Assembly: GCA_964572175.1 (NCBI GenBank)
Contig: CAZNEH010000004.1
Location: 1-60,411, forward strand
DNA: 60,411 bases
Direction: 5' to 3'
DNA from: an uncultured Gammaproteobacteria bacterium
GTDB taxonomy: Bacteria > Patescibacteriota > Patescibacteriia > UBA9570 > CAZNEH01
Notes under the pieces: model-generated
What the model was told of the DNA's origin: nothing
The model's database searches: none
What the model saw: the letters and a program-made list of their open reading frames with translations, nothing else
Part shown: one piece after another, positions 9,960-39,600 of the stretch
Numbering within the stretch: the first letter of the stretch is position 1
Layout: each line of letters begins with the position of its first letter
Position numbers and translations under genes: made by a program

Positions 9960-9988
9960 ATCTACTTTAATAATAGCATAAAATAAAT

Positions 9989-10009
9989 AATCGCGCAATA
10001 ATCGCGCAA
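9989..10009 (+). repeat. 21-bp direct repeat, left copy (AATCGCGCAATAATCGCGCAA)
   Basis: Identical copy at 11590-11610; a third ATCGCGCA unit at 10013-10020. Confidence 0.8.
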
Positions 10010-10027
10010 AATATCGCGCAATTAAAT

Positions 10028-10097
10028 AAAAAAAGCCCTCTTCCGCAGTTTACCTCGCCACAGCTTTAGCGGCGGCGGGTTCCCCGACGGAAGAGGT
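10028..10097 (-). terminator. GC-rich terminator hairpin of the 10119-10457 gene
   Basis: cctcttccg...cggaagagg stem followed by a T-run on the minus strand. Confidence 0.65.
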
Positions 10098-11579: not shown

Positions 11580-11589
11580 GCTATAAAAA

Positions 11590-11610
11590 AATCGCGCAAT
11601 AATCGCGCAA
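11590..11610 (+). repeat. 21-bp direct repeat, right copy
   Basis: Identical to 9989-10009. Confidence 0.8.
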
Positions 11611-11626
11611 CCCATCCCGCAAAGAA

Positions 11627-12577
11627 TTATTGCATGTCAAAAGTTTTTTGATCTGAACTCACTAATAAATGCCCATGAGAACATTTATGTTTTTTACTAA
11701 AGAGATCTTTTTTTATAGAAATTTGTTCCAAAGTTTCTTTACGAGTGTTTCCCAAAACAACCTGATCCTTGCTTTCCACACATGGAGTAACATCACCATT
11801 AGAAAAAATATTTAGTTGTCCAGTAAAAGCAAAGCACTCTAAAGTTTTTGAGTGTTTTTTTAAAGTTACTTCCTCAGCTAGTTTACAAATTTTATAATTA
11901 TTTTCTTCATTCACAGTAGAAGCAGGAGTAGATAGTTTAATTTTTATTTGATTCCCATATTTTTCTATCATTTCCTTAGTCTTTATAAGAAGTTTCTTAT
12001 AAGCCTCTTCATTAAACTCATATTTTTCTCTCATCTCATCTTTTTTTCCTCGACCCAAAGCTTTAAAAGTTCCAAATCGAATAGTTTCAATTCCCAAGTC
12101 AATGGCAATCGTAATTATTTCCTCCATAAAATCAATATTATTTTTAGTCAAAGTAGTTCTAATTTTTACATTTACTCCTGCTTTTTGATAAGTCTTTAAA
12201 TTAGGAATAATATTTTTATATTGCGCATGCTTAGGGCGAGCAAAATTATCCAAAGAAAACATAACACTGTCAATATTTTTTTCTCTTAAAACTTTAAATT
12301 TTTCATTATAAGGAATAGTCCCATTAGTGATAATGGTCATATTTTCCAAAGTTTTAAACTCATTTAAAATTAGCGGTAAATCCAATCTCAAAAAAGGTTC
12401 ACCACCTTCGATGTGAATATCTTTGTAATCAATTTTATTTAGTTGTTGTACCACCTCAATCATTTCGTCTGTATTCAGCTCGTCTGGTAGAACATTACCA
12501 CTATCTGCTAAACAATGCTCACAGCCCAAGTTGCACTTTTCCGTAATAATTAGATGGATTAATTTATATTTTTTCAT
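11627..12577 (-). CDS. Radical SAM protein with SPASM/twitch-like C-terminus
   Basis: CNLGCEHC (CxxxCxxC), GGEPF, C-terminal C...GDVTPC...LGN. Confidence 0.85.
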   Translation of the reverse strand: MKKYKLIHLIITEKCNLGCEHCLADSGNVLPDELNTDEMIEVVQQLNKIDYKDIHIEGGEPFLRLDLPLILNEFKTLENMTIITNGTIPYNEKFKVLREKNIDSVMFSLDNFARPKHAQYKNIIPNLKTYQKAGVNVKIRTTLTKNNIDFMEEIITIAIDLGIETIRFGTFKALGRGKKDEMREKYEFNEEAYKKLLIKTKEMIEKYGNQIKIKLSTPASTVNEENNYKICKLAEEVTLKKHSKTLECFAFTGQLNIFSNGDVTPCVESKDQVVLGNTRKETLEQISIKKDLFSKKHKCSHGHLLVSSDQKTFDMQ

Positions 12578-24707: not shown

Positions 24708-24736
24708 TTGACAAAATATGAAACCTATGATAAGAT
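24708..24736 (+). promoter_or_regulatory. Sigma70 promoter upstream of the long structured leader and cassette array
   Basis: TTGACA-17-TAAGAT with extended -10 TG. Confidence 0.7.
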
Positions 24737-24742
24737 GTCTCG

Positions 24743-25450
24743 TCAAGATGAAACGCAAAGAGAAACTGGAGAAAAGCACACGAACATTACAACCTAGTAA
24801 GAGAGAGCCCAGACACTGATCCTGGGTAAACAAAAGATCAGTAGAACACGCATGTCTCTCTCGTTAACCCTTCGATACGATTTTCCTAAGGAAAATCACT
24901 CAGGGTGAAACAGTTATAGAGATATGCGTGTTCTTTTATAAAAAGGAGTTGATTAATAGAGAAGTAAACCAGAAGTAAAAGTAGAGAGATTACTTCCCTA
25001 GAAATTAAATCCTAGATTACTCTGGAATACCCAAGCCTCCTTATATAAGGCGGAACGGTAAACAACGAGTTAATCAAACGATGATTAGCAAATGAGGTTG
25101 AGAACAGTAAAACGTTTTCCCTCGCAACTACCAAAAGGTGGTTTGAGCAATCAATAGTGCACAGCTAAGTCAACTTCGGTTGACCTGGCTGGCGAGGTTC
25201 TAGGAGCGCTTGCCTAGGACTTCACCAGCCGGTTCCAGTAAATAAACGAAAGGCTACTATTCTAAATACTTCTTAAAGAGCAGGTCCAAGGTGTTGGACT
25301 AAAAGAAGGAACAGAGTAGAGGACATTGACAACTTAGTTCTCCCTAAGCTCATAACTAGATTATGTGTTTAGGGAGCATCACGAGAGACTACGGCTAAAC
25401 GCGCGTTCATCTGGGTTGTCCAGGTGCGTTCGTAAAGCAGAGTCTTTCGT
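24743..25450 (+). ncRNA. Candidate ~700-nt highly structured noncoding RNA or 5' leader
   Basis: Successive hairpins, e.g. 24843-24934, cUUCGg-capped 25162-25191, 25187-25230, 25339-25376, 25381-25450; G-U pairs favour + strand; no ORF >=60 aa in the track before 25365. Confidence 0.6.
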
Positions 25451-25470
25451 TATGTATCATGGAGTCATTT

Positions 25471-25818
25471 ATGACCAAGCTCATCAACCTGACCCCCCAC
25501 GCCCTCACCCTCCGTGCCGTCGATGGCACGGACACCACCATCGCCCCCTCGGGGACGGTGGCCCGGGTCTCCATGACCCCGGGAGTCAAGACCGAGGTCG
25601 AGGGGGTCCCGGTCCCGGTGTGGACCGCGGACGAGGTGGGGGAGGTCACCGGCCTCCCCGCCCCGCAGGAAGGCACCTTCTACATCGTCTCCGGCTTCGT
25701 CGGGTCGGCCTGCAAGGGCCGCTCCGACATCCTCGTCCCGGGCACCGGCCCCAAGGACGGGGCCGTCCGCAACGACCGCGGCCACATCCAGGCCGTGACC
25801 CGCCTCAAGCGGGTCTAG
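25471..25818 (+). CDS. GC-rich cassette A: NLTPH-motif protein, putative Crn4-like ring nuclease
   Basis: MTKLINLTPH...ARV...GLPAPQEGTFYIVS...R.D...P...R...G pattern, which I recall for the Crn4 family; GGAG SD. Confidence 0.6.
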   Translation: MTKLINLTPHALTLRAVDGTDTTIAPSGTVARVSMTPGVKTEVEGVPVPVWTADEVGEVTGLPAPQEGTFYIVSGFVGSACKGRSDILVPGTGPKDGAVRNDRGHIQAVTRLKRV

Positions 25819-25831
25819 ACGGTCACCCCTC

Positions 25832-26140
25832 CCCAGTCATGAGGCAACTGGGAATTCGGAGGACACCTCGCCTCACCCCTGGGAGCACGCGCACCGCACA
25901 CCGCGTGTCGCTCCCATCCTTTTTTCCGCTCAGTATTTCTGCGAAAAATAAACATAGCGCAGCCAAATAGTGAGCGTAAATAAGGATTCTCACATCCTGA
26001 CCAGTAAAGGCCCTATCCACCCTTTGTGGATGCGCGTTCTTCCCAGAGCGCAGAGTGGAGCCACACTGACTGGTAAAAAATCTTGACCCCCCACGGGTCC
26101 CGGGTTCATGAGCCTTTACTCTCGAAAGGAGCAAATCATG
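25832..26140 (+). repeat. Divergent copy of the inter-cassette structured module
   Basis: Pseudoknot 25832-25875, GGGAGC..GCTCCC hairpin 25881-25915, hairpin 25916-25987, multibranch motif 26000-26074, SD GAAAGGAG. Confidence 0.8.
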
Positions 26141-26503
26141 TCCAAGTCCAACAGCGTCCCCACCGCCGCCGAGGAGGCCAAAAGCCTCTTCGAAGAGACG
26201 CTCCCCACCCTCCCCACCACCATCAAGAACGGGGTCGAGCGCCCCGTCTTCCAGTTCGAGGAGTTGAAGGAGGACGGGTCCGTTTGGGTCCACTCCGGAG
26301 CGGATGGCGTCCCCCCCCGAAAGATCGGTTCCATCGGGGAGCCGATCGAGGAGATCATCCCCGACAAGATGATCTCCTCCCTGATCTTGGAGGATGGCGG
26401 GGCCGGGGGGCTCCCCTCCGAACCACAAAAGTACCGGACCTCCGTGGCCCGGCAGCTCCGCCGGGAGCTGGCCGAGAAACTCCTCGCCATGTGCGAGGAG
26501 TAG
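26138..26503 (+). CDS. GC-rich cassette B: acidic hypothetical protein
   Basis: GAAAGGAGCAAATC-ATG start; C-ending codons; MSKS N-terminus. Confidence 0.7.
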   Translation: MSKSNSVPTAAEEAKSLFEETLPTLPTTIKNGVERPVFQFEELKEDGSVWVHSGADGVPPRKIGSIGEPIEEIIPDKMISSLILEDGGAGGLPSEPQKYRTSVARQLRRELAEKLLAMCEE

Positions 26504-26504
26504 T

Positions 26505-26796
26505 GCCTAGTCCAGGCCTAAGACACGTCTGGTGAAAAAAACAACTGTCTTCAGACGGGAGCCCGCGCATCGCACACCGCGCCGGTTCCCATCCTTTTTT
26601 ATTTTCATCATCCAGCATGGTGAACATAAATAAGGATTCTCACATCCTAAACCAGTAAAGGCCCTATCTCACACCTCGCGAGATGAGCGTTTCCTAGAAA
26701 CGCAGAGTGGAGCTACACTGACTGGTTAAAAATTAGACCCCCTCGTGGGTCCCGGGTCATGATCCCGGTTACTCTTTGAAAGGAGATATCATGTCC
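26505..26796 (+). repeat. ~290-bp inter-cassette direct repeat, copy 1
   Basis: Near-identical to 27027-27317, with differences only in the first ~40 nt. Confidence 0.95.
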
Positions 26797-27024
26797 CAAT
26801 CCATCGCCACGTCCCCCCGCCCCCAGTCCACCCCCGTCCGGTGCGCGCAGTGCGTGCATTGGGTTGAGAAGATGGGGGGCTTCGGCCTCTCCGTCTCCGC
26901 CAAGGAGAAGGGATTGAAGTTTTGCCTCGGCCAAAGGGCCGAGGCCTTCACTATGGGGATGGAGGACGCCTGCGTCCTCACCCCGCCAGACCACTTCTGC
27001 GCCCTGGCAAAAAAGAAGGAGTAA
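26791..27024 (+). CDS. GC-rich cassette C: small Cys-rich protein (77 aa)
   Basis: GAAAGGAGATATC-ATG; CAQCVHW...C...C...C. Confidence 0.65.
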   Translation: MSQSIATSPRPQSTPVRCAQCVHWVEKMGGFGLSVSAKEKGLKFCLGQRAEAFTMGMEDACVLTPPDHFCALAKKKE

Positions 27025-27026
27025 GC

Positions 27027-27317
27027 GCCTAGTCCAGACCTAAGACACGTCTGGCGAAACAAAAACTGTCTTCAGACGGGAGCCCGCGCATCGCACACCG
27101 CGCCGGTTCCCATCCTTTTTTATTTTCATCATCCAGCATGGTGAACATAAATAAGGATTCTCACATCCTAAACCAGTAAAGGCCCTATCTCACACCTCGC
27201 GAGATGAGCGTTTCCTAGAAACGCAGAGTGGAGCTACACTGACTGGTTAAAAATTAGACCCCCTCGTGGGTCCCGGGTCATGATCCCGGTTACTCTTTGA
27301 AAGGAGATATCATGTCC
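27027..27317 (+). repeat. ~290-bp inter-cassette direct repeat, copy 2
   Basis: Near-identical to 26505-26796. Confidence 0.95.
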
Positions 27318-27686
27318 AAGTCCATCAACACCGCCGCCCTCGCCTCCCTTCTCGCCCCCTGGTTCGCCAGCGGCGAGGACGAGGATATCCCGACCGGATG
27401 GGAGGTCGAGGGGGCTTACGAAGAGCCCCATCGCGTCCCCCGTGTCCACGGGGAGGTGGACGGAAACCGGATCTACTGCGTAGATCCGGAGGACCACTGC
27501 CCCTTCTGGCTGGTCTGGGGGGGACCGGGAGAAATCCCGGAAAACCTGTTCCACAACGACACCGCCCTCGAGGAGCGCCACGAAAAGCTCCTCGAAATCG
27601 GCAATGCCCTCGGGGGATGGCGAGAGTGCGAGGGGTGTGGAGAGTGTGTCTCAGTGGGGGAGGTATGCCCCCATTGCGGACAATAG
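27312..27686 (+). CDS. GC-rich cassette D: acidic protein with C-terminal zinc ribbon
   Basis: GAAAGGAGATATC-ATG; CEGC...CPHC at the C-terminus. Confidence 0.7.
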   Translation: MSKSINTAALASLLAPWFASGEDEDIPTGWEVEGAYEEPHRVPRVHGEVDGNRIYCVDPEDHCPFWLVWGGPGEIPENLFHNDTALEERHEKLLEIGNALGGWRECEGCGECVSVGEVCPHCGQ

Positions 27687-27697
27687 GCGCACCCAGC

Positions 27698-27830
27698 CCA
27701 GACCTGAGCATGTCTGGACACAAACAAACAACTGTTCACCTGGAAGCGTGCGCCTTGCACCGGCCGCGCTTCCATCCTTTTTTCTTTCCATTACTCTTTC
27801 TCTCTCTAGAGTAGTGGAGGGAAAAAAGAG
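27698..27830 (+). terminator. 3' module of the last cassette: pseudoknot + GC hairpin + U-tract hairpin
   Basis: ccagac/gtctgg stem, loop tgagca pairs tgttca; tggaagcg...cgcttcca then T-run; ccattactct/agagtagtgg. Confidence 0.7.
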
Positions 27831-31673: not shown

Positions 31674-31710
31674 CATGAGCCTGCAACTTAGAAAGGAGCA
31701 AATCATGTCC
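31674..31710 (+). repeat. 37-bp translation-start repeat (CATGAGCCTGCAACTTAGAAAGGAGCAAATCATGTCC)
   Basis: Identical at 32827-32863; related at 26107-26143. Confidence 0.9.
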
Positions 31711-32688
31711 CAGTCCACCTCCATCGCCACCATCATCGTCACCCACGGCGGTGAGTTCCACGCCGACGACGTGTTCTCCGGAGCAGTGCTCTCGGCCCTG
31801 GCCCCCGAGGCCGAGGTCGTCCGCACCCGCGACGAAGAGTGCTTGTCCTCGGCCACCTCCGAGAACGGCCCCATCGTCTTCGACGTCGGCGGCGACTACG
31901 ATGCCACCCTGCGCAACTTCGACCACCACCAGGAAGATGGAGCCGGCACCCGCCCCAACGGCGTGCCCTACTCCAGCTTCGGCCTCATCTGGCAGTACTA
32001 CGGCCGCCTGTACCTGGTCAAGGTACTGGGTAGCGAGCTCAACCTCGACTACAGCGACCTCCACAAGATGGTCGACGAAGACTTGGTCCAGGGCATCGAC
32101 AGCATCGACACCGGTGCGGTCGTCAACCCGTACTTCCAGCCCCAGATCAAGGACAACGAGGTTTCGGTCGACGTGTCCACGGTCTCCAAGGCCGTGTTCG
32201 CCATGAACCCCCAGCCCTTGCTCGGCGACCAGGACTACGACTCCGAGTACCTCCAGGCCGTGGCCGTGGCCCAGTCCCTCCTCCAGGGTGTGGTCAAGGC
32301 CTGCGCCGCCAAGCTGCTCGGCAAGACCCTCATTAAGTCCGGCCGCCGCTTCACCGACCGCATCGTGGTCGTCGAGGAGAACGTCCCCGAATGGTGGAAG
32401 ATCGTCTCCGACCCGGACAGCGGCTTCTCCGAGGCGCTCTACTACCTCGAGCCGGACCAGTCCACCCCCGGCGCCTGGATGATCTGGTTGGTCCGGAAGA
32501 CCCCCGACACCTTCGAGGGCCGCAAGTCCCTGCCCGCCGCCTGGGCCGGCAAGCGGGGTGGGGAACTGGACCAGATCACCGGCCTCACCGGCTGCGTCTT
32601 CGTCCACCCCGGCCGCTTCGTTGGCGGGGCCAAGGACCTGGACACGGCCATCGCCATGGCCAAGCTGGCCATCGAGATCGAGGACTAG
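31705..32688 (+). CDS. GC-rich cassette E: MYG1-family (UPF0160) exonuclease/phosphoesterase
   Basis: THGGEFHADDV, VRTRD, DVGG, FDHHQ, SSFGLIW, FVH motifs. Confidence 0.9.
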   Translation: MSQSTSIATIIVTHGGEFHADDVFSGAVLSALAPEAEVVRTRDEECLSSATSENGPIVFDVGGDYDATLRNFDHHQEDGAGTRPNGVPYSSFGLIWQYYGRLYLVKVLGSELNLDYSDLHKMVDEDLVQGIDSIDTGAVVNPYFQPQIKDNEVSVDVSTVSKAVFAMNPQPLLGDQDYDSEYLQAVAVAQSLLQGVVKACAAKLLGKTLIKSGRRFTDRIVVVEENVPEWWKIVSDPDSGFSEALYYLEPDQSTPGAWMIWLVRKTPDTFEGRKSLPAAWAGKRGGELDQITGLTGCVFVHPGRFVGGAKDLDTAIAMAKLAIEIED

Positions 32689-32715
32689 CATCTGAGCCCG
32701 ACAGGATCGGGCTCC

Positions 32716-32810
32716 GGGAGCCGCGCGCACCGTGCCTCACGTACACCGCGTGCCGCTCCCATCCTTTTTCCCCTTCATTATTCTAAAAAATAGTGAATGG
32801 AAAAGAGGAT
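32716..32810 (+). terminator. Cassette GC hairpin plus U-tract-sequestering hairpin
   Basis: GGGAGCCGCGCG...CGCGTGCCGCTCCC ATCCTTTTTCC ... GGAAAAGAGGAT. Confidence 0.7.
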
Positions 32811-32857
32811 TTCCCCTCAAGGCTTTCATGAGCCTGCAACTTAGAAAGGAGCAAATC

Positions 32858-33193
32858 ATGTCCGTCAACCGTTACTTCAATACCGCCCTCGGCCTTAGCA
32901 TGCTTCCGGACGGCGAGTTCTCCGTCCAGACCATTACCCCCGAGGCCGCCGCGGCTTGGCTGCTGGAAGGTCACCAGAACGTGGCCAACCCCAACCACAG
33001 CAACTCCCTGCAGGCCATCACCCAGAAGATCGACGTCGACATGCGCGACGCCAAGGGCGGCCGCATCACCCTCGAGCCGGGCGATCAGTGCTTGGTGGCC
33101 CAGATCGGCGGGATTCCCCGCGAGACGCGGGAGTTCACAGACGAGGAGATCGCCGCGGCCACCTTCACCTTCCGGCTGGTGACCGTCAAGTAG
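32858..33193 (+). CDS. GC-rich cassette F: divergent DUF1874 (AcrIII-1/Crn2 ring nuclease-like) protein
   Basis: By-eye colinear match to STIV B116-type proteins: NTALGLSML, NPNHSNS (His), RITLEPGDQCLV, PRETREFTDEEI, FTFRLV; 111 aa. Confidence 0.65.
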   Translation: MSVNRYFNTALGLSMLPDGEFSVQTITPEAAAAWLLEGHQNVANPNHSNSLQAITQKIDVDMRDAKGGRITLEPGDQCLVAQIGGIPRETREFTDEEIAAATFTFRLVTVK

Positions 33194-33220
33194 TCACCGC
33201 CTCCGCACCTTCTTCCCTCC

Positions 33221-33265
33221 GGGAGCCGCGCGCAACACCCCGCGCGCCGCTCCCTCTTTTTATTT
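33221..33265 (+). terminator. Cassette GC hairpin terminator
   Basis: GGGAGCCGCGCG...CGCGCGCCGCTCCC + T-rich tail. Confidence 0.75.
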
Positions 33266-36562: not shown

Positions 36563-36601
36563 AAAGTAAGGATAACCCTAGGGTTGTCCGTAAATAAAAA
36601 T

Positions 36602-39600
36602 ATGAAAATCTGGAGGAAGATATTTTTCGTAATAATCGCTTTTTTTAGTCTGGGCTTATTAAGTCCAGCTTATGCTCAATTTGGAGAAGAACTTGGAGAG
36701 AATATCGAGCTAGGAAATACTAGTCCTTTAGATTTAGCTATTAATATTATTAATTGGGCTTTAGGTATTTTAGCCCTAGTCGCTGTAGTTATTATTTTAT
36801 ACGGCGGATTTGTTTGGCTTACTTCTGCTGGAAATGAAGAGCGCCTTGCCCAAGCCAAGAGAATTTTAAGAAATGGGGTTATTGGTCTAGTTATTATTTT
36901 ATCTGCTTGGGGCATTACCTATTATGTCCTCAACACTTTATTAGATTTAACTGGCGGTGAAGTTACAACTACTACTGGCGGAGGTCCAGGTGACGGAGTT
37001 GGTGGAACCAGCAATTTTTATATTACAGCCGTTGATCCTAACGACGCTGAAGAAGACGTTAGTCTTTGTCATATTATTCAGGTTTTCTTTAACCTAGAAG
37101 TAGTTGAATCTACTGTTACTACCGACAATTTCTGTGTTTACCCAGAAGGGTCCACTTGCGAAGATGGAGTCACTGGTGATTTTGCCTTTCCAGAAAGTGG
37201 TCAAGGATTTGTTTTTTACCCAGACGAAGATTATTTAGCTAGTACGGTTTATCATGTTGAGTTAACTACTGATATCCAGGGTGTTGATGAAGATTTAGTT
37301 GCTTATGCTCTAGGATATACTGACCCTTACTTAGATTTTAGTTTCACCACTGGCACAGAAACAGACACCGTTCCTCCTTATGTAGATGTTACTGATTTTA
37401 CCCCAATTCCAGCTGATGGAGACGACGATGCCTGTTTAAATACAGTTATTAAGGTTACTTTTTCTGAAAGTTTAGACTCTGCCTCTTTAAACGATGAAAA
37501 CGTCTGGCTTTATAATGGTTCTACTCCTTCAGACGAGTTAGACGTTCAATATATTGCCACCATGAATAGAGGGGGGTCAACTGCGGATACTCTTTATACT
37601 TATCCCGAAACAACTTTAACTGCTTTTACAGATTATGGTTTATCTTTATATAGTGGAGACGCTGATGGTGTGGGCGCAATTAAAGATACTTGCGGTAATC
37701 CTTTAGATGGCGATTACGATGGTACTGCTGAAGGCTCTACCGAAGATGACTTTATTGATCCTGCTGACGCTGCGGCTACTATTAATGGAGATTGGGTCTA
37801 TCCTTGGAATTTTACCACTGGAGAAAATGCTAGTTGTGTACCCGTAATAGATAGCTTCACTCCTTCTTCTGGTTATTATAATGATTCAGTTACTATTTCT
37901 GGTTTATATCTAGACCAATATACAGATATTAATTTTCATAATGGAATTTCCGCGGCTACGACTAGCTGTTTTGATGCTGATTATCAAGTAACTAGCGGGT
38001 GTATTGTAGACGATTCTTCAGACGAGACTTTAATTGTTCAAACTCCAGTCGCTTCTCAAACCGGGCAGCTTTCTGTCGAGGGCCCAGATGGAACTGGAAC
38101 CTCTGCTTCTGATTATACTGTTAGCAGTCCTTATGTTTCTCGCTTATCTCCATCTACTGGTCCAGTTGCCCAGTCTGTAAGTATTAAAGGGGTTAACTTT
38201 GGAGATTATGACCCAACTGTAGAAGGGTCTACTCGAGGAACTGTTTACTTTAGAGATTTTGTTAGCGGCACCGATTTAGTAGCTGACTTTCCTTGTGATG
38301 ACGGTTGGGACGATACTCAAATCATTGTCACTGTTCCAGAGGGCGTTGATCTTTTAGGAGATTTAAATGTGCAAGTAGTTACCTCTGATAGTTATTATAG
38401 TAATTATCGAGATTTTACTTATGAAGATGGCACTCCTGGTCCCACTCTTTGTGAAATAAATCCATCTTGTTCTGAGGATGGAAATGAAAATATTTATTTA
38501 TCTGGAGTAGGACTTAGTGATGCTCAGGGCTATTCTTATTTTTATAACTATAGCTTAGATACGTCTGCCGAGGCTAATATCTCTGCTTGGGACTCTGCGA
38601 CTGGCGACATTACTTTAACTAGCGCTCCTTCCGCATACATTAGTACCTTAGGAGAATTTAATGTCGTTACTCAAAATAATGACGGCTCAGAATCTAATGG
38701 TCTGGACTTTGAAATGCCTTGTACTGATGCGCCTAATGTTGTTCAAACTAGTTCTTGCCGTCCAGACGAAGATGCTTTCCCACTTCCTAATCCTTATTTA
38801 AACGAAGATGAAGCCTGTCGAAACTCCGCCGTGATTGTTGGTTTTGACCAGGCTATGAATGAAGATACTTTTACCTCTGACAACATTGCTATTTACAAAT
38901 GTTCTTCAGACGAAAGTTACGACAGCACTACTTGTGATACTACTAATTTATTAACCACCAGTTTAATTGATGAGGATTATGTTACCTCTGGTGATTACGA
39001 TGGATTTAAAATAGAAAATTTTGGTTTTGAGGCCAGCTATTGGTATCAAGTCAATTTAAGTACCAATGTTTTAGCCGATACTGGTGTAGGCTTAACTTCT
39101 GATTATTCTTGGCAATTTAGAATTCGTGAACTAGATGAAGATTGCGAGGCTGATTATGTAAACCTATCTCAAAGTCATCGCGACTTTAATACTTTCGACC
39201 AATTAAGTTTTGATACTAGTGATTATACTTCTTGGCAAGATTTTGCCGCCTCTCCTTATACTGTCGAGTGTATTGTCTTAAATAGTGGGGCAACTTCTTG
39301 GGTAATCTCTGATGCTGAAGATACTGACACAGCCACTACTAATGAAATAGTTTCTTTTAACAACGATCTTACTTTAAGTGCTTCCGAGACCACCTCTAAC
39401 GGAGACAATAATATTTACATGATGGGAGACACCGACGATGTTAATGAAGGAAGTATTTATTTACGAGCTACAGTTGATGGCGGGGCTTATGATACTGCTC
39501 CGGTTAGTGTGGATTTTGGTTATTGCGAGACTACCGCTGCTTGTGAATCTATTTGTCCTGGCTCAACTTGTGACCTGGAAGCCCATAAATGTTTACCAGT

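Follow-up and report, generated by a model that had tools for sequence, protein, structure and literature searches.

Four small gene cassettes in the 60,411-nucleotide stretch of Patescibacteria DNA analysed here (the window) raise the question of what lies between each stop codon and the terminator behind it, and what such an element might do for genes that share no ancestry. A sequence-only reading had placed an H-type pseudoknot (knots A–D) in each of these intervals, and the present analysis follows that proposal from the structure of the knots to their copies in other genomes and their possible role.

Pseudoknots in the cassette array

As shown in Table 1, the array begins with a promoter-like site and continues through four cassettes, each with its own open reading frame (ORF), knot and intrinsic terminator. 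The strands named earlier for A–D were all located by script at the positions in the table, and the description of the linker as A-rich in B–D and not in A is correct. The hairpin of A–D has 5–6 bp, and its loop pairs with a stretch 12–17 nt downstream. The spacers from the stop codon to the hairpin stem (S1) are 13, 8, 9 and 11 nt in A, B, C and D, respectively; L1 measures 2, 2, 2 and 1 nt, L2 is 1 nt throughout, the linker (L3) measures 17, 13, 12 and 15 nt, and the terminator stem starts 5, 5, 5 and 3 nt after the end of S2b, the downstream strand of the loop-tail helix (S2). The four named copies are thus all present, but because B and C are near-duplicates, with 3' UTRs of 96% identity, A–D represent just three independent copies.

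Table 1. Features of the cassette array, in window coordinates
Feature	Position	Strand	Description
Promoter-like site	24708..24736	+	TTGACA, 17 nt, TAAGAT; TG ahead of the second hexamer
PK0, fifth knot copy, 5' leader of the array	24808..24842	+	S1 CCCAG/CTGGG; L3 taaacaaaa; S2 ACTGATC/GATCAGT (7 bp)
Long hairpin directly after PK0	24843..24939	+	16-bp outer stem with one G-U, structured interior; then UUUUAU
Cassette ORF A	25471..25818	+	115 aa, GC 0.71; large family of ~115-aa proteins with no assigned function
Pseudoknot A	25832..25875	+	S1 CCCAGT/ACTGGG; S2 TGAGGC/GCCTCA; L3 17 nt, not A-rich
Intrinsic terminator A	25881..25925	+	GC stem, then T6
Structured leader before ORF B	25926..26137	+	Strong Shine-Dalgarno aaaggag
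Cassette ORF B	26138..26503	+	121 aa; no Pfam or PHROG match
Pseudoknot B	26512..26551	+	S1 CCAGGC/GTCTGG (one G-U); S2 AAGACA/TGTCTT; L3 tgaaaaaaacaac
Intrinsic terminator B	26557..26600	+	
Leader before ORF C	26601..26790	+	Identical to the ORF D leader
Cassette ORF C	26791..27024	+	77 aa; no family match
Pseudoknot C	27034..27072	+	S1 CCAGAC/GTCTGG; S2 AAGACA/TGTCTT; near-duplicate of B
Intrinsic terminator C	27078..27121	+	
Leader before ORF D	27122..27311	+	
Cassette ORF D	27312..27686	+	124 aa, Cys-rich C-terminus; no family match
Pseudoknot D	27698..27738	+	S1 CCAGAC/GTCTGG; S2 TGAGCA/TGTTCA (one G-U); L3 acacaaacaaacaac
Intrinsic terminator D	27742..27783	+	

A fifth copy in the same locus, PK0, lies 72 nt downstream of the promoter-like site, with a TAG 10 nt and a TAA 7 nt upstream of it; no convincing ORF precedes it. 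The description of the knot as an element placed just after cassette stop codons therefore applies to A–D but does not extend to PK0, which sits in a 5' leader. The hairpin that follows PK0 has a minimum free energy (MFE) of −51.8 kcal/mol (z −6.41), and it looks like a terminator or an attenuator because it is followed by UUUUAU. Ahead of the array, a scan of the + strand found no sigma-70-like site besides the promoter-like one; the scan used the consensus only, and native promoters could escape it.

The ORFs between the conserved flanks are orphans, unrelated to each other. Of 712 candidate proteins, 674 fall within the family of ORF A at E ≤ 0.001, and this family includes phrog_21731 and phrog_30542. 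The conserved inter-cassette block extends through the terminator and the leader to the start codon. Two more cassettes of the same window, E and F, have the same type of terminator and no knot. The locus sequence is known from the source DNA sample only, and the contigs of that sample gave no variants or junctions at the locus. A separate GC-rich island in the window carries 44-nt direct repeats at its flanks.

With a probability that we put at about 0.9, the knots belong to a compact, previously uncatalogued family of H-type RNA pseudoknots encoded on the sense strand. In 9/9 copies (A–D, PK0 and four from other genomes), the hairpin loop can pair with a strand outside the hairpin so that the two helices cross. 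S1 has 5–7 bp, is GC-rich and begins invariably with two C-G pairs at its outer end; its loop has 7–9 nt, and the partner segment of the loop lies 9–17 nt downstream and forms an S2 of 5–8 bp with at most one G-U pair. Across the copies, L1 measures 0–2 nt, L2 0–1 nt and L3 9–17 nt, and by the steric rule on pseudoknot loop lengths these values are compatible with both helices at once, although one copy with L1 = 0 (G006a) would need one S2 pair to be frayed. In eight of the nine copies L3 is rich in A and C, the consensus being approximately (U/G)AAACAAAA(C); in pseudoknots of the luteovirus and preQ1 types, a strand of this kind lies along stem 1, in its minor groove. At L2 the copies have a, c, c, t, t, t or no base at all, and L1 is variable.

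AG is found two bases ahead of S1 in 7/9 copies, a stop triplet 7–17 nt upstream of the knot in 9/9, and another hairpin 0–17 nt after it, which is a canonical intrinsic terminator in 5/9; in six of the nine, 0–5 nt separate the knot from a terminator-like hairpin that has a U-run, while in two of the other genomes (G006 and G003) the hairpin after the knot has no clear U-tract. In 8/9 copies, an ORF lies 5' of the knot and a hairpin or terminator 3' of it. The Rfam search that had been proposed was run, and the knots match nothing catalogued there, riboswitch models included: scans with all families gave no match at gathering score in the window and none on the elements at E ≤ 5, and at the loci in the other genomes (L103, L113 and L165) there was no match on the elements at E ≤ 1. 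Similarly, a full-text literature search for Patescibacteria and pseudoknot found no paper; in the candidate phyla radiation, structured RNAs have hardly been explored.

Copies in other genomes

Besides PK0, four copies were found in other genomes, one in G008, two in G006 and one in G003. The total is nine copies, eight of them independent, from four genomes and three families of one Patescibacteria order, of which 32 genomes were examined (4/32 carry the knot). Further homologues had been called for as a means of checking the proposal, and the five added copies all retain the complementarity between loop and tail. A covariance model built from B, C and D recovered A (E 1.9e-7) and the G008 copy (E 7.7e-6), and patterns blind to S2 recovered G006a, G006b, the G003 copy and PK0, with S2 present in 4/4. 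The knot is tied to GC-rich, foreign-looking accessory cassettes of this order, the puzzling, self-contained cassettes that pepper its AT-rich genomes.

The 20-kb neighbourhoods of the copies in G006, G003 and G008 held no other copy. DNA-level searches with the UTR modules gave nothing outside the contig: BLAST against their own genome returned no match beyond it, and among 61 genomes (the own genome and 60 relatives) only the own genome matched. The exact terminator and leader patterns had 0 matches in genome contigs and 0 in viral contigs. ORF A has relatives at 14 loci in genome contigs and 167 in metagenomes, the best 80 of the 167 being kept, and DNA similarity to them ends at the ORF A stop codon. 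Downstream of these relatives (best 80 of 167), a knot-like arrangement was found in 1/73 distinct regions, compared with 3/73 in the reversed control and 3.4% in shuffles; since this is not above the controls, the knot does not characterise the ORF A family. The one region concerned, at locus L087, combines a GC-rich S2 of 8 bp with a linker rich in A and C, and may be a distant relative of the knot.

Weak matches of the covariance model were rejected, being AT-rich, mostly coding and devoid of S2; they include positions 36594–36677 of the window on the minus strand and loci L104, L105, L106, L108, L111, L112, L115, L116 and L118. Loci L109, L110 and L117 appear in the model alignments alone and were left out of the copy count. 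Across 401 genomes of the class, pattern 1 had matches in 106, a figure to be read alongside a reversed-pattern control that also fires widely; the matches listed were screened by eye for S1 pairing, and the 10 best, when inspected, included 0 members. The stems were not in register in four MAFFT alignments, and the searches used no pseudoknot-only covariance model, so divergent copies such as A may be missed elsewhere.

Covariation and chance

The claim that selection acts on RNA structure is borne out by the covariation of both helices in the eight independent copies. Among their 97 pairs, 93 are Watson-Crick, four are G-U, all with the wobble on the sense strand, and none is A-C. S1 positions 3–6 show 3–4 pair types each, and S2 positions 1–7 show 2–5 each, position 8 being present in one copy only; this count was made in an alignment in our own structural register, which was not blind. 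For so few sequences, the covariation is unusually clean.

Chance pairing was estimated in several ways. When the downstream segment was shuffled 20000 times, the share of shuffles with an equal or longer loop-tail helix was 0.095 for A, 0.006 for B, 0.004 for C and 0.003 for D, and combination by Fisher's method gives a P of 8e-9 for the loop-tail helix. The genome also offers a natural control, namely 44 GC-rich cassettes with at least 25 nt between stop codon and terminator: the knot arrangement occurs in 5/44, which are A–D plus one, against a shuffle rate of 1.3%, and the single similar case among the other cassettes (1/40) is an A/T low-complexity artefact. ViennaRNA folds nested structures only, pseudoknots being outside its reach, and in its MFE folds S1 is preferred in some copies and S2 in others, a difference that is expected if both helices are real.

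Possible roles of the knot

Of the three roles suggested at first, a nuclease roadblock and a protein tag are possible, and a small ligand sensor is unlikely. We tentatively read the knot as a structural block in cis that would act together with the next hairpin, either by protecting mRNA ends or by affecting read-through of the terminator. Its role as a stabiliser or insulator is, from the sequence, a possibility to which we give clearly less than even odds. Together, knot and hairpin would close the cassette transcript as an end module of two parts, in which the knot, as a mechanically stable block, would halt PNPase on the 3' side and RNase J on the 5' side at the cassette boundary, and would let the terminator fold independently of whichever ORF is swapped in upstream. 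The position of 8/9 copies, 3' of an ORF and ahead of a hairpin or terminator, is consistent with such a role. The genome has PNPase and RNase J genes, and RNase R/II of the RNB family was not found in it, a set of enzymes against which a stable structure should block effectively; in addition, unrelated orphan ORFs between conserved flanks fit an end module that is independent of context. However, PK0 lies near the predicted 5' end, where a block to 3'-to-5' decay would protect almost nothing, and the hairpin after the knot in G006 and G003 lacks a clear U-tract. Against PNPase, a terminator hairpin is usually enough by itself, and the knot must be dispensable for termination and basic stability because cassettes E and F have the terminator without it. 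A role against roadblocks by Rho was dropped, no Rho being found above the cut-off in the genome.

Two known systems come close to a stabiliser of this kind. Plant-virus exonuclease-resistant RNAs likewise pair an apical hairpin loop with the 3' tail, and a structural block at the margin of a 3' region is the notion common to both, but they are defined experimentally, by Xrn1 stalling and a ring fold round the 5' end, and the knots occur in bacteria with RNase J and PNPase genes in place of Xrn1. Small-gene cassettes bounded by promoter and terminator, such as phage morons and the PeSL of T4-like phages, are patchy and swap unrelated ORFs between conserved flanks as the present cassettes do; to our knowledge, a covarying pseudoknot in their 3' flank has not been described. 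If the knot is a stabiliser, it would explain in part how foreign modules work in a new host and would be a 3' end module that can be transferred; should it tune terminators instead, a new mechanism of transcription control would be at hand. Either way, it is a testable RNA of ~40 nt for which natural compensatory variants already exist.

Control of terminator read-through is a reading that we consider unlikely, yet far from negligible. Here the knot would act on the transcribing polymerase, directly or via a bound factor, and one promoter would drive a chain of terminated cassettes. PK0 lies ~70 nt past the sole promoter-like site, with a terminator-like hairpin immediately after it, 6/9 knots are within 0–5 nt of a terminator-like hairpin with a U-run, and no sigma-70-like site on the + strand precedes B, C or D, each of which follows a strong terminator; that last point is weakened by a promoter scan that could miss native promoters. 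The lambda sites nutL and nutR occupy the same two kinds of position, one past a promoter and one between a stop codon and a terminator, and whereas the nut sites work via a bound factor, HK022 put RNA acts directly on polymerase. The knot, with one copy soon after the promoter and others between stop codon and terminator, might then be a new cis-acting terminator-control RNA, a pseudoknot-based form of processive antitermination in Patescibacteria, in which polymerase, alone or with a factor, would read through each cassette terminator; we regard this specific version as rather improbable. The nut site is made of boxA and a simple boxB hairpin and put of two stem-loops, neither being a pseudoknot, and neither an N-like protein nor a boxA was identified in the present case. 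Against read-through control in general, the last cassette, D, and the single cassettes of G008 and G003 have the knot with no cassette after it; the hypervariable S2 leaves little sequence for a specific contact with polymerase or protein, and an alternative-fold switch is disfavoured because, by inspection, no segment competes with the terminator stem.

It is also rather doubtful that the knot is a protein-binding tag specific to cassette transcripts, that is, a site for a regulator, an RNA chaperone, a processing enzyme or an export machinery. The AG before S1 (7/9), the outer C-G pairs and the AAAC-containing L3 would be readable features, and the restriction to foreign-looking cassettes in 4/32 genomes of the order agrees with a tag; however, no candidate binder travels with the knot, as the flanking ORFs are unrelated orphans, and the conservation of L3 is explained equally well by tertiary contacts inside the knot. 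A bolder and speculative reading is that the knot could label GC-rich, strongly Shine-Dalgarno-dependent messages so that they are exported to a high-GC host cell or survive in one.

The remaining readings carry little weight. A signal in the DNA, be it a site of recombination or of a cassette boundary that folds when single-stranded, as integron attC does, or an array of binding sites, would suit the boundary position, the conservation of structure over sequence, the patchy cassettes and the direct repeats beside the other GC-rich island, but is very improbable: the attC core RYYYAAC occurs in 0/9 copies and GTTRRRY in 2/9, at unrelated positions, the helices cross, unlike those of attC hairpins, and the knot is not the break-point because the conserved block runs on beyond it. 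The four wobbles, all G-T on the sense strand, fit a transcript; they exclude double-stranded and antisense readings, though not sense single-stranded DNA. We give an equally low chance to a self-cleaving or processing element. In the pistol ribozyme, a hairpin loop forms a ~6-bp pseudoknot past an A-rich linker, and a stack of S1 and S2, of ~12 bp, might be taken by RNase P for a tRNA minihelix; the likeness is one of architecture only, and the inter-cistron position would suit processing. Pistol's extra helices (P2/P3, with the cleavage site) are absent, however, a CCA-like tail after S2b is not conserved, and the scans with all Rfam families, pistol among them, had no match on the elements.

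More remote still is a pseudoknot riboswitch in the manner of preQ1-I, SAM-II or guanidine-III, which would sense a small ligand and so gate the neighbouring terminator. The layout resembles that of the preQ1-I aptamer (RF00522): there too, a hairpin continues into an A-rich 3' tail whose end forms a short helix with the loop, often directly before an intrinsic terminator, and PK0 does lie in a 5' leader. Yet the riboswitch models of Rfam have no match (E ≤ 5 in the window, E ≤ 1 at the other loci). In preQ1-I, the ligand is contacted by a cytosine at the junction and by loop bases, all of them conserved; that cytosine is not kept in the knots, where the ligand-pairing junction base varies or is missing. 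With no constant unpaired base at the junction, variable L1 and L2 and no apparent pocket, the knots are unlikely to be ligand sensors. Stem 2 is much longer than in preQ1-I and, at 5–8 bp, should be stable without ligand; an antiterminator alternative is not visible. Whereas preQ1-I sits in the leader of queuosine genes, 8/9 knots lie behind genes, and these are unrelated orphans.

The lowest probability goes to a recoding stimulator, which would promote stop-codon read-through or −1 frameshifting. The knots share with luteovirus-type pseudoknots, such as the frameshift signal of beet western yellows virus, a GC-rich stem 1 of 5–7 bp, a first loop of 0–2 nt, a junction of 0–1 nt and a long loop that is rich in A and C and contains AAC/AAAC motifs, but stem 2 has ~3 bp there and 5–8 bp here, where the long loop has 9–17 nt, and the knots are found in a bacterial host, after stop codons and before a terminator. 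A stop triplet does lie ahead of every copy, yet its spacing of 7–17 nt is not constant, a slippery heptamer at 5–9 nt occurs in 0/9 copies, PK0 has no credible upstream ORF, and the read-through extensions of A, B and D stop after 5–7 codons. In the G003 copy, a G_GGA_AAG heptamer stands in the zero frame directly before the stop, 10 nt from S1.

Pairing and geometry of the knots

As listed in the table, the pseudoknots stand in four tandem plus-strand cassettes within an island at 25.4–27.8 kb of the window (GC 0.52–0.59). Each knot comprises a hairpin stem (S1) and a loop-tail helix (S2, with S2b as its downstream strand), joined by loops L1, L2 and L3, the last being the linker. Every strand that the sequence-only reading had assigned to copies A–D was located by script at exactly its assigned position, and all four copies are present; only three are independent, because B and C are 96% identical over their whole 3′ region. 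Nested minimum-energy folds select S1 in A and C, S2 in D and a competing hairpin in B, a disagreement of the kind expected when two crossing helices are both favourable.

Coordinates of features in the window and geometry of the cassette knots (last column: percentage of 20000 shuffles of the downstream segment whose loop-tail helix equals or exceeds the observed length)
Feature	Position	Strand	Description	Stop to S1 (nt)	L1 (nt)	L2 (nt)	L3 (nt)	S2b end to strong terminator stem (nt)	Shuffles (%)
Direct repeat, left	9985–10028		44 nt						
Direct repeat, right	11586–11629		44 nt						
Promoter-like site	24708–24736		sigma-70-like						
PK0	24808–24842		fifth window copy, in 5′ leader						
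ORF A	25471–25818	+	cassette ORF						
Copy A	25832–25875		pseudoknot	13	2	1	17	5	9.5
Leader of B	25926–26137								
Leader hairpin	26085–26099	−	terminator-like, T-run						
ORF B	26138–26503	+	cassette ORF						
Copy B	26512–26551		pseudoknot	8	2	1	13	5	0.6
Leader of C	26601–26790								
Leader hairpin	26735–26752	−	terminator-like, T-run						
ORF C	26791–27024	+	cassette ORF						
Copy C	27034–27072		pseudoknot	9	2	1	12	5	0.4
Leader of D	27122–27311								
Leader hairpin	27256–27273	−	terminator-like, T-run						
ORF D	27312–27686	+	cassette ORF						
Copy D	27698–27738		pseudoknot	11	1	1	15	3	0.3
Cassette E	31705–32688		MYG1/UPF0160-family protein, E 1.2e-61						
Cassette F	32858–33193		weak STIV B116-like match						

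The family now totals nine copies, of which eight are independent; they come from 4 of the order's 32 genomes, which fall in three families (f1, f3 and f4). Pairs were counted with the copies registered by their stems, in our own structural register, and some copies had been found by consensus-aware methods; on this basis the eight independent copies hold 97 pairs, of which 93 are Watson–Crick, four G-U and none A-C. The outer two pairs of S1 are C-G in every copy, positions 3–6 show three or four pair types each, and S2 positions 1–7 show two to five each, position 8 being present in one copy only. Both helices thus change letters yet pair, and the eight loop-tail helices gave a Fisher-combined probability of 8e-9 under shuffling, which bears out the earlier claim of a covarying H-type pseudoknot. 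All wobbles are coding-strand G-U, which places the structure in the sense transcript rather than in duplex DNA or antisense RNA. Loop lengths across the family (L1 0–2, L2 0–1 and L3 9–17 nt) are compatible with a classical H-type knot; in all copies but A (8/9), L3 is rich in A and C and carries an AAAC motif, and AG stands two bases upstream of S1 in 7/9.

A natural control was drawn from all GC-rich ORFs of the genome that are followed by a terminator (90 candidates), 44 of which have a stop-to-terminator gap of at least 25 nt; a hairpin whose loop pairs downstream was found in five of these, namely A–D and one A/T-run artefact, with a shuffle rate of 1.3%. The comparative sequence evidence argues strongly that a conserved sense-strand pseudoknot exists, with a probability of roughly 0.9.

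Search for further copies

Searching by DNA similarity and by exact pattern gave no match beyond the window's contig, and at the loci of ORF A relatives in genome and metagenome collections (for the metagenomes, the best 80 of 167) similarity to the window ends at the stop codon. Copies B, C and D were used to build a covariance model in which S1 and the terminator were the paired elements; it recovered A, which was absent from the model, at E 1.9e-7, and among the 32 genomes of the order gave one strong new match, in G008 (E 7.7e-6). There, behind a GC-rich orphan ORF, TAG is followed after 11 nt by S1 CCGGAG/CTCCGG, an A-rich 15-nt linker, S2 AGACA/TGTCT and, 5 nt on, the terminator. A second covariance model added a G006 copy whose S1 is CCGGTG/CACCGG and whose S2, TGGGTA/TACCTA, is wholly different; another copy, with S2 TTGCATAC/GTATGCAA, was seen behind the preceding GC-rich ORF on reading the locus.

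The order was also screened with two IUPAC patterns that fixed only the ends of S1 and some of the linker, leaving S2 free. The first matched 17 times and its reversed-pattern control 5 times; six of the 17 were known elements, and the other 11, AT-rich sequence without proper stems, were dismissed. Among the ten best candidates of this pattern in 401 genomes of the class there was no new member. The second, with 23 rows to the control's 6 matches, regained C, G008 and G006a (one of the two G006 copies) and added two elements: one in G003 (TAA, 8 nt, S1 CCCAGT/ACTGGG, S2 AGCGCAT/ATGCGCT) and PK0 (S1 CCCAG/CTGGG, S2 ACTGATC/GATCAGT), both with the linker taaacaaaa. PK0 was also found by a descriptor script. 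Loop-tail complementarity is kept in these homologues: both G006 copies, the G003 copy and PK0 carry S2, and all are retrievable by the S2-blind patterns. The 20-kb surroundings of the G006, G003 and G008 copies held no additional copy; divergent copies such as A, and the full taxonomic range, may be under-counted.

On L087, a high-GC metagenome contig, an arrangement of the same architecture lies at 2778–2816, 19 nt beyond the stop codon of a gene homologous to ORF A (CCCCT/GGGGG, 9-nt loop, linker gacacaata and a perfect 8-bp S2, GGTGCCGA/TCGGCACC). Among the 73 distinct regions that follow ORF A homologues, this one alone has such an arrangement, a frequency not above chance; it is possibly a distant relative, and if truly so would hint that the knot arrived with foreign DNA.

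Surroundings of the knots and their possible role

Every copy has a stop triplet 7–17 nt upstream and another hairpin 0–17 nt downstream. The latter is a canonical terminator after A–D and the G008 copy and has no clear U-tract after the G003 and G006 copies; directly after PK0 it is a long hairpin with a 16-bp stem and then UUUUAU, and the region 24795–24950 folds with z −6.4. RNase J and PNPase are encoded in the genome, in which no RNB-family exonuclease or Rho was found above cut-off. Tentatively, we favour the reading that the knot is a cis-acting structural block which, together with the following hairpin, would form a two-part end module: it would shield the cassette message against exonucleases and would let the terminator fold independently of whatever ORF is upstream.

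The main rival, terminator read-through control in the manner of nut/put sites, seems somewhat less likely. It would account better than a structural block for PK0, which lies 72 nt past the sole sigma-70-like site upstream of the array, and for the missing internal promoters, no such site having been found ahead of B, C or D, but it is the worse account of solitary and last-in-array copies. A ligand sensor is unlikely because the copies share no conserved pocket, have a long S2 and accompany unrelated genes, and because no model matched, the Rfam search having returned no family for any copy. The defining features of a recoding element, an attC-like recombination site and a ribozyme were also checked and were absent, the last likewise having no Rfam match. 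In G003 (L165, minus strand), a zero-frame G_GGA_AAG heptamer stands directly before TAA, 10 nt from S1 and ~10–17 nt upstream of the knot; this textbook-looking frameshift site occurs in 1/9 copies and is probably a coincidence.

The cassette island and neighbouring features

The assembly measures 1.08 Mb in 51 contigs (the window is contig C4), with GC per contig of 0.32–0.415. Short high-GC islands are scattered through it, and their ORFs have GC3 above 0.7, their own Shine–Dalgarno (SD) sequences and intrinsic terminators. Pfam and PHROG searches gave no match for ORFs B, C and D; ORF A is one of a large family of proteins about 115 aa long, 674 of 712 candidates scoring E ≤ 0.001, and neither this family nor its PHROG matches have an assigned function. 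A block of knot, terminator, leader, SD and first codons recurs between unrelated ORFs, the C and D units being 96–100% identical to each other and, in blocks, ~80–95% identical to the B unit. A near-identical SD-to-start region is seen in five cassettes (26125–26150, 26779–26800, 27300–27320, 31692–31715 and 32845–32865) whose proteins are unrelated yet all start Met-Ser (MSKS, MSQS, MSKS, MSQS and MSVN), so the conserved 5′ flank extends into coding sequence. Cassettes E and F (31705–33264) have no pseudoknot, though their terminator is closely related to the A–C type.

The leaders before ORFs B, C and D (~170–210 nt) have a common long hairpin (accagt...actggt) and end in a terminator-like hairpin immediately upstream of the SD; compensatory change is seen in their inner stems (atccac/gtggat in B, atctc/gagat in C and D). 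They may be a second structured RNA of unknown kind, in two independent versions only, and the hairpins on their minus strand might act as bidirectional terminators or be fortuitous. The stretch of ~630 nt that separates PK0 from ORF A (24843–25470) is non-coding and opens with a very stable long hairpin; it matched no Rfam family and does not resemble the other leaders. A further GC-rich island at 10.0–11.6 kb, with a gene for an alpha/beta hydrolase and an ORF on the opposite strand, is flanked by direct repeats 1601 nt apart. The repeats share 82% identity, including a perfectly matching core that contains AATCGCGCAATAATCGCGCAA, and look like the footprint of an insertion or an attachment site.
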